Source: a virus
Lineage: Duplodnaviria > Heunggongvirae > Uroviricota > Caudoviricetes
DNA length: 64,000 nucleotides
Strand: one strand, 5' to 3'
Virus record (IMG/VR): IMGVR_UViG_2778260992_000001
The notes under the pieces were generated by a model. The model searched no databases, was not told the DNA's origin, and saw only the letters and a program-made list of their open reading frames with translations. Positions 1,152 to 62,311 of this stretch are shown here, piece after piece; position 1 is the stretch's first letter, and the number at the start of each line of letters is the position of its first letter. The position numbers and the translations under genes were made by a program.

Positions 1152-1531
1152 TGCATAAATCAGTAGCCGGTGAGCTTCAGAAGGAAGTCGATAATACCAC
1201 TGATCTATTGGACGATATTTTAAGCATTCTCGCGCTGCTTGAGGCTGGCGATTGGTCAGAACATTGCACTAAAACAGAGCTAGGCGGTCGGCTTGAAAGA
1301 GAGATTACACGACTGATTAGCGATGCCCAAAATGATTTGTCACCTGAGCATCTCCCCTGCGATGTAGTTCTTGTGCCAGGGATGAGGATACACGAAGGCG
1401 TCAGAACGAAAACATTATTAACCGCATTACAGAGAAGAGCCGAACTAAGCTCGCGGATAAAGTTGATGCCATCCAAAATATTTGATGTCGTCAAATTTAC
1501 GCCATCGCAACATACTGAGAGAGATAAATGA
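1148..1531 (+). CDS. hypothetical protein
   Basis: ORF with ATGA-type overlap to flanking ORFs. Confidence 0.4.
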   Translation: MMHKSVAGELQKEVDNTTDLLDDILSILALLEAGDWSEHCTKTELGGRLEREITRLISDAQNDLSPEHLPCDVVLVPGMRIHEGVRTKTLLTALQRRAELSSRIKLMPSKIFDVVKFTPSQHTERDK

Positions 1532-2154
1532 GCACGGTAGCGAAAGATCTCACAGAAGATATTCTCAATGAAATTATTGCTGGTGCAAATACCTCGCTTG
1601 AGCAACTTCTTGCGTTAGCACTGAGAGCCGAACGTCGAGACAGAAATCGTTTTTATGAGCGATTACCAGGGAAGCGACCAGATAGATCGGATGAAGAAGG
1701 TTGCGATATAGACTACATGGAGCCTTCAGAGATTTATCAACTTGGTAAAGATGACGGCTGGAACGCTTATCACGATGCTGTGATGAAGTTGGATGAAAAA
1801 GTTAAACCTCTTTCTCGACCGGTAGATCACGGTTTCCGCGATAACTGCGAATGCTCTAGTTGCCAGACCACGGCCCGTATTTGTTCCGAATTGACAGATA
1901 AGTCCAGCCTAATCTACGAAGTTAATGTAGGCGGTAATACATGGGTCGAATGCACAAGAGCTGCATACGTAAGAGCAAAAGACAAGGGTGAATTAACCAG
2001 AGTTGTTACCCATCACCCAAATAATGAGCTTAAAGATCACCAGATTAGAGAACTGGTGAACGAGTTGCGGGATATTGCGGTTCAGTACCACGGAGCGCAG
2101 CAATTGCGGGAGAAAATTGCCAGAGCAGTGAACAACTCAGTCCGTAAAAAATAA
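1528..2154 (+). CDS. hypothetical protein (Cys-containing, 208 aa)
   Basis: ORF, last gene of coupled operon; hairpin follows. Confidence 0.45.
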   Translation: MSTVAKDLTEDILNEIIAGANTSLEQLLALALRAERRDRNRFYERLPGKRPDRSDEEGCDIDYMEPSEIYQLGKDDGWNAYHDAVMKLDEKVKPLSRPVDHGFRDNCECSSCQTTARICSELTDKSSLIYEVNVGGNTWVECTRAAYVRAKDKGELTRVVTHHPNNELKDHQIRELVNELRDIAVQYHGAQQLREKIARAVNNSVRKK

Positions 2155-2170
2155 GCAATAGTACGATAAA

Positions 2171-2196
2171 GAGGCCCCATGCTCTTGATGGGGCCT
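2171..2196. terminator. GC hairpin (AGGCCCCAT / ATGGGGCCT) after left operon
   Basis: 9-bp perfect stem, 7-nt loop; no clean U-tract on plus strand. Confidence 0.35.
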
Positions 2197-2263
2197 GTAG
2201 CAACTAGCGTTATGGACGCTGGTTTACGTACTCAATGATCGCTTTGATAATCGCGAACATCGG

Positions 2264-2565
2264 CGGCACGATTTTGAACAGTAAGTTAACCATAACAGGC
2301 CTCACTTAGTTTTATCGCGCCTAGCTGCAAATACCTTTGGGCTTGCCTTTGCAGTTGCAATATCTGTAGTCGCCAGATACTTACGGCACGATTTCGAGTT
2401 AAGGTAAGGTTTTAGAGTCACCAAAAACCTGGACTTAAATCTTCTTTGAGAACAACGATGTTTGGTAAATGGTCATTATTACCTAGCATGACGGCTCAAC
2501 GTTTCTTGATGAATCCAGTACATTCGGTTAATCTTAGCTCAGTCGCCAGATACTTATGGCTCAGG
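2264..2565. repeat. direct repeats (CGGCACGATTTYGA..TAAG and AGTCGCCAGATACTTAYGGC), two copies each
   Basis: Copies at 2264-2291/2384-2409 and 2367-2393/2540-2565 in a noncoding stretch. Confidence 0.4.
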
Positions 2566-2597
2566 AACAGAGGCGCAAACTCTGTTTCCTTTTAAAA

Positions 2598-2630
2598 AGC
2601 CCAGCCTAGTCAACTGGGCTTTTTAATGTC
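2598..2630. terminator. rho-independent terminator (GCCCAG..CTGGGC + T-run)
   Basis: Stem-loop followed by TTTTT; reads as terminator on both strands. Confidence 0.55.
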
Positions 2631-2919
2631 CGTTTTTAACCAAATGTACCCACAATACCGCAACATCAGTGTCTTGCGAATTAAGATAGGATTTATAGAG
2701 ACTATGTGCAAGTGCATAACTTTGTGGATAACTCGTAAAGGAAAAAGTGGTTTCCGCGGACATTAGTTCAGACAAGGAGTCTGGGAAAGTCAATGGGAAG
2801 TAAAAATTTGTTAAAAATAACGTTTGTTGGAATTGTATATATTTATGCCTTTCAATAGTTAGCATCTTATTAACATCTTTTTTAAGAGATAGAGTTCAAA
2901 AATATATAGCTTCAACATA

Positions 2920-2939
2920 TACTGTATGCATATACAGTA
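2920..2939. promoter_or_regulatory. LexA (SOS) box TACTGTATGCATATACAGTA
   Basis: Matches CTGT-N8-ACAG consensus; lies 17 nt upstream of the umuD'-like start, after an AAGAGG Shine-Dalgarno. Confidence 0.75.
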
Positions 2940-2955
2940 TTAAGAGGCGAGTATT

Positions 2956-3345
2956 ATGGGCTTCCCTTCTCCTGCGGCGGATTATGCTGAGAGCCGTATT
3001 TCTCTTGATCAGCAGATAATTAGACATCCTTCAGCGACCTACTTCATGAGGGCAGCTGATAGTCATCATCGTGAGGGAATATTACAGGGTGCATTGCTGG
3101 TGGTCGATTCCTCACTTACCCCGGTTGATGGTTCTCTGCTTGTATGCGCTCTGGATGGGGAATATCGCGTAAAAAGATACCGGAAGTATCCACGTCAGCA
3201 TCTGGAGGATTTAAGAACCGGTAAGAAGGAAGCATTGCCAAAGGATGACGATGGATGCACGGGCAGCAATGCCGTGTTTGGTGTGATCACTCACATTATC
3301 AACGACGCAAGAAGTGGCGAGTTTGATGATTGTCCCGTGATGTAG
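2956..3345 (+). CDS. UmuD'-like S24 peptidase-family protein (orphan, no umuC)
   Basis: N-terminus MGFPSPAADY aligns to E. coli UmuD immediately after its Cys24-Gly25 cleavage site; Ser and Lys of the catalytic dyad retained; no stop-free extension upstream. Confidence 0.75.
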   Translation: MGFPSPAADYAESRISLDQQIIRHPSATYFMRAADSHHREGILQGALLVVDSSLTPVDGSLLVCALDGEYRVKRYRKYPRQHLEDLRTGKKEALPKDDDGCTGSNAVFGVITHIINDARSGEFDDCPVM

Positions 3346-3356
3346 GAGAACTGATT

Positions 3357-3382
3357 AGGCGGTGCAATGCACCGCCTTTTTA
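3357..3382. terminator. bidirectional terminator between umuD'-like gene and apbC
   Basis: AGGCGGTGCAATGCACCGCCT hairpin plus T-run. Confidence 0.6.
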
Positions 3383-4483
3383 TCACACTGCGCGGAATGC
3401 GATTTCGCCAGGTATTACTTCACCTTGCCAATACATTTGGGCAGCAACGCGATCTGCGAGGTCACGATAAATAGCCGTAAATTCGCTATCTGGACGACTA
3501 ATAACGGTTGGTGTTCCGTTATCCAGATCTTCACGAAGAGAGATATGAAGTGGCATTTGGCCTAACAACTGCGTGTTGTATTTCTCGGCCAGTTTCTGTG
3601 CGCCACCGGTGCCAAAAATTGGCTCGTGATGACCGCAGTTACTGCAAATATGCACACTCATGTTTTCAACGATACCCAGTACCGGCACTTCGACTTTTTC
3701 GAACATCACAATGCCTTTCTTCGCATCGATCAGCGCGATGTCTTGCGGCGTAGTTACCACAACCGCACCAGTTACAGGAATGTTCTGCGCCAGCGTCAAC
3801 TGAATATCACCAGTGCCCGGCGGCATATCGAGAACGAGATAGTCCAGATCAGGCCACAGTGTTTCCTGCAACATCTGCATCAGCGCCTTGCTGGCCATCG
3901 GTCCACGCCACACCATTGCATTGTCGTCGGTGACCAGATAACCAATAGAGTTGGTTGCCAGGCCATGAGACATGATAGGTGCCATGTGAGTACCGTCAGG
4001 TGAGGTTGGACGTTGGTTTTCCGAGCCCAGCATGGTTGGAATTGATGGACCATAGATATCGGCATCCAAAATACCAACTTTCGCACCTTCAGCAGCCAAC
4101 GCCAGTGCCAGGTTTACCGCCGTGGAGGATTTACCCACGCCGCCCTTGCCTGAGCTGACGGCGATAATGTTCTTCACGCCATTAATGCCTGGTTGGTTTT
4201 TGACGCGCTTAAGCGTGGCAATGTTGTACGACAGCTTCCAGTCAATAGCCTTTGCGCCAGTGATACGGAGCAGATCACCACTACATTGCTCTTTCAGGTC
4301 TTCAAAAGGCTTATTCCACACGAAAGGCATGATTAGTTCGACATGCAGTGTGTCATCCATCAACGCAACATGGTGTAACGCTTTAAGCGTAGTCAGGTTG
4401 TGTTTCAGGGTTGGGTGCTGAAAATTAGCCAGCGTACCGGCTACCATTGCTCTCAGGGCATCCGGCGATTTGGACTCGCTCAT
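3383..4483 (-). CDS. apbC: iron-sulfur cluster carrier ATPase ApbC/Mrp
   Basis: Walker A GKGGVGKSS, C-terminal CSNCGHHEP motif; near-identical to E. coli Mrp as recalled; divergent from metG. Confidence 0.92.
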   Translation of the reverse strand: MSESKSPDALRAMVAGTLANFQHPTLKHNLTTLKALHHVALMDDTLHVELIMPFVWNKPFEDLKEQCSGDLLRITGAKAIDWKLSYNIATLKRVKNQPGINGVKNIIAVSSGKGGVGKSSTAVNLALALAAEGAKVGILDADIYGPSIPTMLGSENQRPTSPDGTHMAPIMSHGLATNSIGYLVTDDNAMVWRGPMASKALMQMLQETLWPDLDYLVLDMPPGTGDIQLTLAQNIPVTGAVVVTTPQDIALIDAKKGIVMFEKVEVPVLGIVENMSVHICSNCGHHEPIFGTGGAQKLAEKYNTQLLGQMPLHISLREDLDNGTPTVISRPDSEFTAIYRDLADRVAAQMYWQGEVIPGEIAFRAV

Positions 4484-4640
4484 CCCGTCTCCTTTATTTT
4501 AATTTGCGCAATTGTCGCCTTGTAGTGTACTCCAGCTACGACATTTAATCATTTATGAGAAATGCTGTTATCACATGGCAGACATAAGGCCATTTTGTTA
4601 CTATCAAGCCCCTTTTCACTACAAAGAAGTAATGCCTACT

Positions 4641-6674
4641 ATGACCCAAGTCGCGAAGAAAATTCTGGTGACGTGCGCGCTGCCGTACGCTAACGGCTCA
4701 ATCCACCTCGGCCATATGCTGGAGCACATCCAGGCTGATGTCTGGGTTCGTTACCAGCGAATGCGCGGCCACGAGGTTAATTTCATCTGTGCCGACGATG
4801 CCCACGGTACGCCGATCATGCTGAAAGCACAGCAGCTTGGTATCACACCGGAACAGATGATTGGCGAAATGAGTCAGGAACACCAGACTGATTTTGCAGG
4901 CTTTAACATCAGCTATGACAACTATCACTCGACGCACAGCGAAGAGAACCGTCAGTTGTCCGAGCTTATCTATACTCGCCTGAAAGAGAACGGTTTTATT
5001 AAAAACCGCACCATCTCTCAGCTGTACGATCCGGAAAAAGGCATGTTCCTGCCGGACCGTTTTGTGAAAGGCACCTGCCCGAAATGTAAAGCACCGGATC
5101 AATACGGCGATAACTGTGAAGTCTGCGGCGCTACTTACAGCCCGACTGAACTGATCGAGCCGAAATCGGTAGTTTCTGGTGCTACGCCGGTAATGCGTGA
5201 TTCCGAACACTTCTTCTTTGATCTGCCTTCTTTCAGCGAAATGTTGCAGGCATGGACCCGCAGCGGTGCGTTGCAGGAGCAGGTGGCAAACAAAATGCAG
5301 GAGTGGTTTGAATCTGGCCTGCAACAGTGGGATATCTCCCGCGATGCGCCGTACTTCGGTTTTGAAATTCCGAACGCACCGGGCAAATATTTCTACGTCT
5401 GGCTGGACGCGCCGATTGGCTACATGGGTTCCTTCAAGAATCTGTGCGACAAACGCGGCGACACTACCAGCTTCGACGAATACTGGAAGAAAGACTCCAC
5501 CGCCGAGCTGTACCACTTCATCGGTAAAGATATCGTTTACTTCCACAGCCTGTTCTGGCCTGCCATGCTGGAAGGCAGCAATTTCCGCAAGCCGACCAAC
5601 CTGTTTGTTCATGGCTATGTGACGGTGAACGGTGCGAAGATGTCCAAGTCTCGCGGCACCTTTATTAAAGCCAGCACCTGGCTGAATCATTTTGACGCTG
5701 ACAGCCTGCGTTACTACTACACTGCGAAACTCTCTTCGCGCATTGATGATATCGATCTCAACCTGGAGGATTTCGTTCAGCGCGTGAATGCCGATATCGT
5801 GAACAAAGTGGTTAACCTGGCCTCCCGTAATGCAGGCTTTATCAACAAGCGTTTTGACGGCGTGCTGGCAAGCGAACTGGCTGACCCGCAACTGTACAAA
5901 ACCTTTACTGATGCTGCTGAAGTGATTGGTGAAGCATGGGAAAGCCGCGAATTTGGTAAAGCGATTCGTGAAATCATGGCGCTGGCTGATCTGGCTAACC
6001 GCTATGTCGATGAACAGGCTCCGTGGGTGGTGGCGAAGCAGGAAGGGCGCGATGCCGATCTGCAGGCGATTTGCTCTATGGGCATTAACCTGTTCCGCGT
6101 GCTGATGACGTACCTGAAACCGGTACTGCCGAAACTGACTGAACGTGCAGAAGCATTCCTGAATACAGAACTGACCTGGGATGGTATCCAGCAACCGCTG
6201 CTGGGCCATAAAGTGAATCCGTTCAAGGCACTGTATAACCGCATCGACATGAAGCAGGTTGAAGCACTGGTGGAAGCATCCAAAGAGGAAGTAAAAGCCG
6301 CTGCCGCGCCAGTAACTGGCCCACTGGCAGATGATCCGATTCAGGAAACCATCACCTTTGACGACTTCGCCAAAGTTGACCTGCGCGTGGCTCTGATTGA
6401 AAACGCGGAGTTTGTCGAAGGTTCTGACAAACTGCTTCGCCTGACGCTGGATCTCGGTGGCGAAAAACGTAATGTCTTCTCCGGCATTCGTTCCGCTTAT
6501 CCAGATCCACAGGCACTGATTGGTCGTCACACCATTATGGTGGCCAACCTGGCTCCGCGTAAAATGCGCTTCGGTATCTCCGAAGGCATGGTGATGGCTG
6601 CTGGCCCCGGCGGGAAAGATATCTTCCTGTTAAGCCCGGATGCTGGTGCTAAACCAGGCCACCAGGTTAAGTAA
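4641..6674 (+). CDS. metG: methionine--tRNA ligase
   Basis: 677 aa from ATG at 4641 (track start 4512 is TTG); HIGH-like ANGSIHLGH and KMSKS motifs; matches E. coli MetG as recalled. Confidence 0.95.
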
Positions 6675-6694
6675 TTAAGCAACCATTCTTCACA

Positions 6695-10111: not shown

Positions 10112-10423
10112 ATGAAAAAATCATTGGTTCTTGGTCTGGACAAAGACCAGAAGAGAAAAGAGAAGCCTGCGCTGGTTGCTCAATTAACTTTGCTGGACAT
10201 CGTTGCCAATGGAACCTCTATTCGTCTGTTCCGTGAAACAGCGGTGTCTTTCGATAAAAACACCTTTACTCGTTATGTAATGAATGTTCGTCGCCAGCGT
10301 GGAAAAGGCTGGGTGGCATTTCAAAGAATGTGGCCGGAACATCAGCTCGAACTGGCTTTGATGGAAGTTAACCGCGTGGCCCAGCAAGAGATTCAGAGAG
10401 CATCAGTGATGGCAATAGCCTGA
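10112..10423 (+). CDS. hypothetical basic small protein
   Basis: ATG at 10112 after ACGGAG; in frame with track ORF 10082. Confidence 0.5.
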   Translation: MKKSLVLGLDKDQKRKEKPALVAQLTLLDIVANGTSIRLFRETAVSFDKNTFTRYVMNVRRQRGKGWVAFQRMWPEHQLELALMEVNRVAQQEIQRASVMAIA

Positions 10424-61753: not shown

Positions 61754-61828
61754 GATGGTGTAGCTCAGCGGTAGAGCAGTTGGCTGTTAACCAACTGGTC
61801 GGTGGTTCGAATCCACCCACCATCGCCA
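61754..61828 (+). tRNA. tRNA-Asn (GUU)
   Basis: Manual cloverleaf: 7-bp acceptor GATGGTG/CACCATC, anticodon loop CTGTTAA, T-loop GGTTCGAATCC, 3' CCA; differs from E. coli tRNA-Asn. Confidence 0.8.
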
Positions 61829-61833
61829 ATTTA

Positions 61834-61920
61834 GGGGAGTTAGTCCGTAGAGGTAGCGGTGTAGACTGTAAATCTACTGTCATGGCGACTCGGGTGGTTC
61901 GACTCCATCACTCCCCACCA
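61834..61920 (+). tRNA. tRNA-Tyr (GUA), class II
   Basis: Acceptor GGGGAGT/ACTCCCC, anticodon stem-loop GTAGA-CTGTAAA-TCTAC, long variable arm, 3' CCA. Confidence 0.75.
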
Positions 61921-61924
61921 AATT

Positions 61925-62000
61925 GCCGGTTTAGCTCAGTTGGTAGAGCAGTCGCTTTGTAAGCGAATGGCCAGCGGTTCGAGTCCGTTAACCGGCACCA
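61925..62000 (+). tRNA. tRNA-Thr (UGU)
   Basis: Acceptor GCCGGTT/AACCGGC, D-arm GCTC..GAGC, anticodon loop TTTGTAA, T-loop TTCGAGT, CCA; one G-A mismatch at top of anticodon stem. Confidence 0.65.
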
Positions 62001-62224
62001 ATACAACGATAAGATCATTACGGTTAATCGTCGTTCATGTGCACAATGACTGGTCGAAAGGTAGTGATCTTACCGTTGTGGTGGATTCGCAGACTGATGC
62101 GATAGCTTTCTTGGATGTTAGGGAAATGCGGCCGCAAATCTTCCCTTTCGCGAGCGGTGATCGTCCGTAGTCCTAATTGGCTGCACCGTATGCCGGAGAT
62201 TCAGTACCGGCCACCACAACGGCC

Positions 62225-62311
62225 GGAGAGTAGGGAGCATGGTGCTCAAGCGGTCTTGAAAACCGTCCCATTGCGCAAGCGATGATGGTTCGATTCCATT
62301 ACTCTCCGCCA
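62225..62311 (+). tRNA. tRNA-Ser (UGA), class II (D-arm irregular)
   Basis: Acceptor GGAGAGT/ACTCTCC, anticodon stem-loop GCGGT-CTTGAAA-ACCGT, long variable arm, T-arm GATGG-TTCGATT-CCATT, CCA. Confidence 0.6.

Follow-up and report, generated by a model that had tools for sequence, protein, structure and literature searches.

The question raised by positions 2,920 to 3,345 of a 64,000-nucleotide stretch of DNA from a tailed virus (Caudoviricetes; IMG/VR record IMGVR_UViG_2778260992_000001; the whole stretch is referred to here as the window) is what a gene for a ready-processed UmuD'-like protein does on an element that carries no umuC partner for it. The gene was found to be humD, a catalogued member of a HumD family already described. 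It probably forms a LexA-controlled cassette on an SSU5-like phage-plasmid of Escherichia coli, with HumD acting as a surrogate of UmuD' that pairs with the UmuC of the host. The family is said to have been described in 1999 by McLenigan et al. The NCBI annotation pipeline names the gene humD automatically, so the locus itself is an ordinary find, already known.

The humD open reading frame (ORF), located at 2956..3345 on the plus strand with a TAG stop codon at 3343–3345, opens with MGFPSPAADYAESRISLDQQ and encodes a protein of 129 residues (aa) beginning with MGFPSPAADY. This protein matched the NCBIfam equivalog model NF051876 ('HumD family translesion DNA polymerase') end to end, with residues 1–129 on profile positions 1–129 of 129 and a score of 219.8 bits against a cutoff of 120 (E = 8e-66). 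The UmuD subfamily model NF007621 gave 87 bits, under its cutoff of 110, which sets the ORF outside UmuD proper. The LexA model TIGR00498 reached 27.2 bits against a cutoff of 110.95 and matched the C-terminal domain region only; the product has no N-terminal winged-helix domain and is thus not a LexA. The ORF was assigned to Peptidase_S24 in Pfam and to PHROG 811 (UmuD-like protein). By tblastn, the window protein was 100% identical to CYRAN_98 of Escherichia phage Cyrano and 91.5–92% identical, over 129/129 residues, to P1 HumD (AAQ14181.1), annotated in the P1 record with the words 'functionally complements E. coli UmuD''. The initial annotation had compared the gene with P1 HumD and supposed it to be mobile-element cargo. 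The alignments to UmuD and P1 HumD and the phage-plasmid setting agree with this, and 'HumD-like' would be too weak a term for a named family member found at an identity of at least 95% in about 180 plasmid records.

A UmuD'-type S24 fold was obtained for the protein. The UmuD' structure 1UMU was matched by phmmer (HMMER) at E = 6.7e-23 over residues 2–118, and an AlphaFold2 model built on a diverse alignment had a predicted local distance difference test (pLDDT) score of 74.5. A shallow alignment of close homologues only had given an unusable model (pLDDT 43.6), and diverse representatives were used instead. The best Foldseek matches of this model in the PDB were 1umu and 1ay9 (both UmuD') and 8gmt (UmuD on a RecA filament), with target-normalised template modelling (TM) scores of 0.76–0.77 (0.76 to 1umu). 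Low confidence was seen in the loop 98–105 and at the C-terminus, where residues 125–129 fell below 50 and residues 121–129 averaged 47. Relative to UmuD, residues 76–105 are divergent and hold a small insertion, the last beta-strand is conserved (VFGVITHII vs. VFGVVIHVV) and about 11 extra C-terminal residues (RSGEFDDCPVM) are present. The earlier remark that the C-terminal third differs from UmuD therefore holds for residues 76–105 but not for the last strand, the main difference being the extra tail.

The start of the ORF coincides with the position of UmuD' Gly25, as had been noticed at first, since K-12 UmuD aligns with it from residue 25 on (tblastn, 42% identity over UmuD residues 25–139). 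An upstream in-frame start was looked for and none was found. The codons 5' of the ATG are ATT, AGT, GCG and GAG, preceded by TAA at 2941–2943, five codons upstream, and this in-frame stop makes an N-terminal extension impossible. A ribosome-binding site (RBS; AAGAGG, 2942–2947, plus strand), read from the sequence, is located 8 nucleotides (nt) 5' of the ATG and is overlapped by the same TAA. By the start codon and the UmuD alignment, both the N-terminal arm and the Cys/Ala-Gly cleavage site are missing from the product. The MGFPSP start was common to all close homologues, with Met-Gly at this position in 117 of 121 aligned sequences; this close set comprises the window protein and 120 cluster representatives, all at least 67% identical to it. 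Longer database homologues (148–223 aa) were considered as true full-length forms and rejected as over-extended gene calls, with unrelated N-termini and the internal Met-Gly retained. The Ser/Lys dyad reported initially is present, Ser36 and Lys73 aligning with UmuD Ser60 and Lys97, in a motif that reads ADSH where UmuD has GDSM. Compared with E. coli UmuD/UmuD' (1UMU, 1AY9, 8GMT) and the plasmid proteins MucA, RumA and ImpA, the window HumD thus shares the S24 fold, the dyad positions and LexA control, but differs from UmuD in lacking the 24-residue arm, the cleavage site and a Y-family polymerase operon, in the ADSH motif, in the extra tail and in a score under the UmuD subfamily cutoff.

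No umuC partner follows humD, in agreement with the initial annotation; apbC comes next, on the minus strand (3383–4483), and the two genes are convergent. A umuC gene elsewhere on the element was also sought, and tblastn with K-12 UmuC gave zero matches at E ≤ 10 in the window and in the complete 109,926-bp reference plasmid, among whose annotations there is no umuC or other Y-family polymerase gene. Since a chromosomal umuDC operon is present in E. coli, host umuDC is the expected partner of HumD.

The gene had been presented as an orphan beside apbC in what was assumed to be a chromosomal setting, and this part of the description was not upheld. By nucleotide similarity and by structural and replication/partition genes, the whole window is phage-plasmid DNA, representing about 64 kb of an SSU5-like E. 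coli phage-plasmid of about 110 kb. The stretches tested within 1528–4483 were 100% identical to the ~110-kb E. coli plasmid NZ_CP014490.1. The plasmid NZ_CP195946.1 was 100% identical over window positions 2600–3400, and its positions 64681 to 1 and 109926 to 109168 aligned with most of the window at ~96–99.9% identity. Positions 1–25000 were covered to 71–93%, at 95.4–97.9% identity, by four SSU5-like phage records (two CMS-2020a records, PhiR41_1 and Cyrano), and SSU5 itself matched 28% of the same region at 82% identity, as a conserved backbone. The gene set of the reference plasmid includes terminase, portal, capsid, tail, ParB, RepB and integrase genes. A chromosomal island beside apbC was ruled out, the region being 100% identical to ~110-kb plasmids, with apbC and metG belonging to the element.

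These two genes are its cargo. ApbC is 94.5% identical to the K-12 protein, and metG (4641–6674, plus strand) is divergent from apbC. The apbC(mrp)-metG block (3383–6675) is collinear with the K-12 mrp-metG locus at 88.7% identity over 3,298 nt, intergenic promoter region included, and this homology stops exactly at both stop codons; nucleotide comparison of the block with the SSU5 genome gave no match. It looks like a housekeeping block captured from the host by a temperate phage-plasmid, with genes for a methionyl-tRNA synthetase and for an Fe-S carrier. As a separate observation, NZ_CP195946.1 encodes, outside the part represented by the window (94402–95475, 99508–103026 and others), its own RecA, DnaE (Pol III alpha), a DnaB-like helicase and a primase, along with an ATP-dependent ligase, NrdAB, thymidylate synthase and DfrA51. 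With this gene set, the element supplies RecA and a UmuD' analogue and no UmuC.

A LexA operator (SOS box), TACTGTATGCATATACAGTA, is predicted from the exact pattern at 2920–2939 on the plus strand, 16 nt 5' of the start codon, in agreement with the SOS box that the initial annotation had noted upstream. TACTGT-N8-ACAGTA has this one exact match in all 64 kb of the window and none in 100 shuffles. The counts of sites with two mismatches, or with CTGT-N8-ACAG alone, were not significant in the window, and weight can be given only to the full 12-base match, to where it lies and to its conservation. The same 20-mer is annotated as a LexA site at phiKO2 gene 23, and the operator of P1 humD carries a LexA binding site annotation in the P1 record. 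SOS boxes were found 34–64 nt 5' of the homologues in P1, Cyrano, pElppa10, N15, phiKO2, yong1 and pAEv1818 (the last with CTG/CAG arms only) and 282 nt 5' of the homologue in HK140; across these eight loci the arms are constant and the spacers variable. A second CTGT-N8-ACAG match (CTGTTCCGTGAAACAG) was observed at 10226–10241, with a G+C-rich spacer and no TA flanks, and is probably due to chance (two found vs. 0.81 expected).

A consensus scan gave a sigma-70 promoter-like site, TTCAAA-17-TATACT, at 2895..2923 on the plus strand (-35 at 2895–2900, -10 at 2918–2923), and its -10 hexamer is overlapped by the SOS box. At the other end, a terminator scan found an intrinsic terminator at 3357..3382 (plus strand), consisting of a 9-bp G+C-rich hairpin (3357–3377; AGGCGGTGC-AAT-GCACCGCCT) followed by TTTTT, between the stops of the convergent humD and apbC. 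RNA folding of 3340–3395 gave -22.6 kcal/mol (z = -3.7), and annotated terminators are also located directly 3' of the N15 and phiKO2 homologues.

Between the window and P1, the similar DNA extends from the SOS box to the humD stop codon, and with P1-like and other SSU5-like plasmids the homology sets in 2–10 nt 5' of the SOS box and runs to the stop codon or terminator. The same left boundary (2910–2918) is found in other SSU5-like plasmids with different upstream DNA. Judged by these boundaries, the unit from SOS box to stop codon is a self-contained cassette, common to P1-like plasmids. The initial annotation had asked whether the locus is empty in other strains, and a candidate for this was found in NZ_CP022167.1, in which apbC-metG is present, humD is missing and a ~130-bp sequence, which we take to be an IS1 end, abuts the junction (3216–3515) and is fused to the terminator region. 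Given this presumed IS1 end, the loss of humD was attributed to a secondary deletion, and NZ_CP022167.1 was rejected as a pristine or ancestral empty site.

Comparison of the window humD with the P1 allele gave 0.77 synonymous substitutions per site (dS) and 0.042 nonsynonymous ones (dN), a dN/dS ratio of 0.055. The gene is thus old and strongly constrained, being neither a remnant nor a recent transfer from P1. The window HumD and P1 HumD are alike in length (129 aa), MGFPSP start, Ser/Lys pair and C-terminal tail, and their loci are alike in the approximate distance of the SOS box from the start, the absence of umuC from the element and the phage-plasmid nature of that element. They differ in the backbone, which is here that of an SSU5-like siphovirus phage-plasmid, and in the neighbours, as humD of P1 lies between hot-lxr upstream and phd-doc downstream, whereas here a gene-free stretch of 800 bp lies upstream and the captured apbC-metG block downstream. 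Additionally, P1 has in lxr a divergent, LexA-regulated partner gene that is missing here.

Among the plasmids in PLSDB, 149 encode a protein at least 99% identical to the window HumD and 33 one at 95–99% (SSU5-type), 460 encode one at 90–95% (P1-type) and 41 one at 60–80%. Homologues at 62–71% identity are present in N15, phiKO2, HK140, HK639 and other lambdoid phages, those at 44–49% in Aeromonas and Hafnia phages, and others in chromosomal prophages of Citrobacter, Salmonella, Klebsiella and Enterobacter. In five further phages whose gene neighbourhoods were examined (N15, phiKO2, HK140, pAEv1818 and yong1) the gene stands alone without umuC; wherever its downstream genes are recorded, it lies between tail-fibre genes and genes for partition or integrase. 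N15 gp26, phiKO2 Gp23 and the 'UmuD-like' morons of lambdoid phages (HK140, HK639 and others), at 64–71% identity, resemble the window gene in being stand-alone, pre-truncated, controlled by an SOS box, flanked by a terminator and provided with the same tail, and phiKO2 Gp23 also in its operator. They differ in lying between tail-fibre and partition/integrase genes, where a dinI homologue is often the back-to-back neighbour, as in phiKO2 and HK140. Literature searches on HumD in SSU5-type phage-plasmids gave nothing specific. With ~180 plasmid records of the SSU5 type (at least 95% identity) and ~460 of the P1 type carrying humD, an SOS-inducible UmuD' that needs no processing is present in many Enterobacteriaceae of clinical and animal origin. 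Such a protein may speed error-prone repair under antibiotic or DNA-damage stress, and its practical relevance is modest.

The mechanism proposed for the window HumD follows that of its P1 relative. In an undamaged cell, host LexA would occupy the operator overlapping the -10 hexamer and keep humD off. Upon DNA damage, RecA-stimulated self-cleavage of LexA would derepress humD along with the host umuDC operon, and HumD would be synthesised directly as the UmuD' form. Since it has neither arm nor cleavage site, the slow RecA-mediated processing that delays the assembly of Pol V would be skipped. A HumD dimer would then join host UmuC and RecA/ATP in a Pol V-like translesion polymerase, and the outcome would be more damage tolerance and mutagenesis while element and host copy damaged DNA. 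HumD may also act with the element's own RecA. By analogy with the 92%-identical P1 protein, on which work was published by McLenigan et al. (1999, J Bacteriol 181:7005), the window protein would be expected to dimerise, to bind UmuC and RecA filaments and to restore mutagenesis; the P1 protein is reported, in the P1 annotation and in the citing literature, to complement UmuD' and to bind UmuC.

Several points weigh against this surrogate role. In the same sources, functional replacement of UmuD' is reported for the P1 allele only. In a CRISPR interference (CRISPRi) screen, P1 humD was non-essential for lytic growth, so that any benefit of HumD would be conditional. The promoter-like site has 9 of 12 consensus matches, and one such site was found in the region where 1.9 were expected, which makes it weak by itself, its plausibility deriving from its placement relative to the SOS box and the start codon. 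Good complementation by P1 HumD reportedly required a high copy number, and its expression is reportedly poor. Finally, because the tail is kept and the dyad often lost across the family, a role of HumD beyond, or other than, substitution for UmuD' is possible.

This last point was examined in two sets of homologues. In the close set, the nucleophile position is occupied by Ser in 76 sequences, by Thr in 43 and by Ala in 2, and Lys73 is kept in 118 of the 121. Most of these proteins are 129 aa long, and across the set the final eight positions, E-F-D-D-C-P-V-[MIL], hardly vary (tail peptide of the window HumD, ARSGEFDDCPVM); nothing corresponding to this tail is present in UmuD. When 1.84 billion 50%-identity representatives were searched with a profile, 4,615 hits were obtained, and 80 near-full-length proteins from the top 150 were classified. 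Fifty-four of them were arm-bearing, of the classical UmuD type, with Ala-Gly (40) or Cys-Gly (9) at the cleavage position before GFPSPA; both Ser and Lys were present in 41 and the tail in none. The other 26 were pre-truncated, starting with Met-Gly and having nothing before GFPSPA, and among these both catalytic residues were retained in 3 and the tail, as [DE]-[FW]-D-D-x-P-x-hydrophobic, was found in 12. The proteins from Aeromonas and Hafnia phages no longer have either catalytic residue and retain the tails E-W-D-D-L-P-V-I and E-F-D-D-N-P-C-M. The loss of the dyad in most pre-truncated homologues indicates that it is not under family-wide selection, and it is probably vestigial in the HumD family, whereas the C-terminal tail looks like the feature under selection in the pre-truncated forms. 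This pattern is possibly under-described, and at the level of the family it might reveal a partner of HumD beyond UmuC.

The tail bears directly on an unlikely alternative, namely that HumD acts chiefly on the host damage response, as its regulator or decoy, and not as a polymerase subunit. The protein could bind RecA filaments, UmuC or SSB-interacting proteins (SSB, single-stranded DNA-binding protein) through its acidic tail, damp recombination or SOS signalling, or redirect repair factors to the element, any boost of mutagenesis being a side effect. The near-invariance of the tail (E-[FW]-D-D-x-P-x-[MIL]) in the 120 close homologues, its retention in distant phage homologues without either catalytic residue, its occurrence in 12/26 pre-truncated and 0/54 classical representatives and its predicted disorder are all consistent with such a role, as is the position of the phiKO2 and HK140 genes beside a homologue of dinI, a modulator of RecA filaments, at the same LexA site. 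Counted from the C-terminus, the tail also resembles the SSB tip, D-F-D-D-D-I-P-F, sharing four positions with it (an acidic residue at -8, Phe at -7, Asp at -6 and Asp at -5), and two distant members end in -PF, as the SSB tip does. The resemblance fails, however, at the determinants of the SSB C-terminus that are most important for SSB partners, the terminal Phe and the penultimate Pro, since the window tail ends in Met and has its Pro at -3. The complementation of UmuD' and the binding of UmuC attributed to the P1 protein in the sources named above also argue against a purely regulatory role. The likeness to the SSB tip is offered as a lead and not as a finding.

A bolder proposal on the same alignments, which we consider quite improbable, is that the HumD-type proteins are a functionally distinct branch in which the cleavage machinery is decaying and a disordered tail has been gained as a docking peptide or mimic of the SSB tip. 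If so, the tail would target HumD-UmuC to SSB-interacting or RecA-type partners at stalled forks, or compete for them.

The second alternative to the UmuD' surrogate, that HumD is an active S24 serine protease cutting host UmuD, LexA or the element's repressor in trans as a damage-linked switch, is very improbable. The window allele has retained Ser36 and Lys73 at the positions of UmuD Ser60 and Lys97, and cleavage of UmuD can happen between subunits. Nevertheless, the substitution of Thr or Ala for the nucleophile in 45 of the 121 close sequences (43 and 2, respectively), the ADSH motif in place of GDSM, the scarcity of the complete dyad in pre-truncated as against classical representatives (3/26 vs. 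41/54) and the Aeromonas and Hafnia phage homologues without either residue all speak against it, and a vestigial dyad disfavours a trans-protease role. A functionless remnant of umuDC, made of a 5'-truncated umuD that has lost its umuC, would account for the short protein and the missing partner gene, but appears effectively refuted by the conservation data, namely the gene's own operator, RBS and terminator, the length of 129 aa in most homologues, the low dN/dS given above and the same architecture in P1-, N15-, SSU5- and lambda-like phages.

Upstream of the humD cassette, some 800 bp (2155–2955) hold no annotated gene inside an otherwise tightly packed element. Two overlapping terminator-like hairpins are present at 2603–2632 (plus strand), and an Rfam scan of 2100–3450 gave sub-threshold matches only, among them an RNAI-like one at 2538–2627 (21.6 bits vs. 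a gathering score of 47, E = 0.26). The stretch could be a small-RNA gene or a recombination scar at a cargo hot spot. Sibling plasmids carry differing cargo just 5' of the SOS box; in NZ_CP083480.1 (276–2930), genes for a theta subunit of Pol III (hot-like) and a type I restriction-modification methylase directly precede humD, the hot-like gene echoing the hot-lxr-humD order of P1. Within the gene-free stretch, a segment of ~125 bp (2705–2830) shows ~89% identity to the regulatory DNA upstream of chromosomal nrdA (ypaB locus) and contains a perfect DnaA box, TGTGGATAA, at 2723–2731. This segment matches 5,423 of 5,426 E. coli genomes, and P1 has the same segment 5' of hot, with an annotation of DnaA boxes in it. 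Judged by the orientation of the window segment, nrdA would lie to its left; the segment does not include the core promoter of that gene. At the far end of the window, four tRNA genes on the plus strand (61754–62311; Asn-GTT, Tyr-GTA, Thr-TGT and Ser-TGA) were found, and they are also annotated on the reference plasmid.

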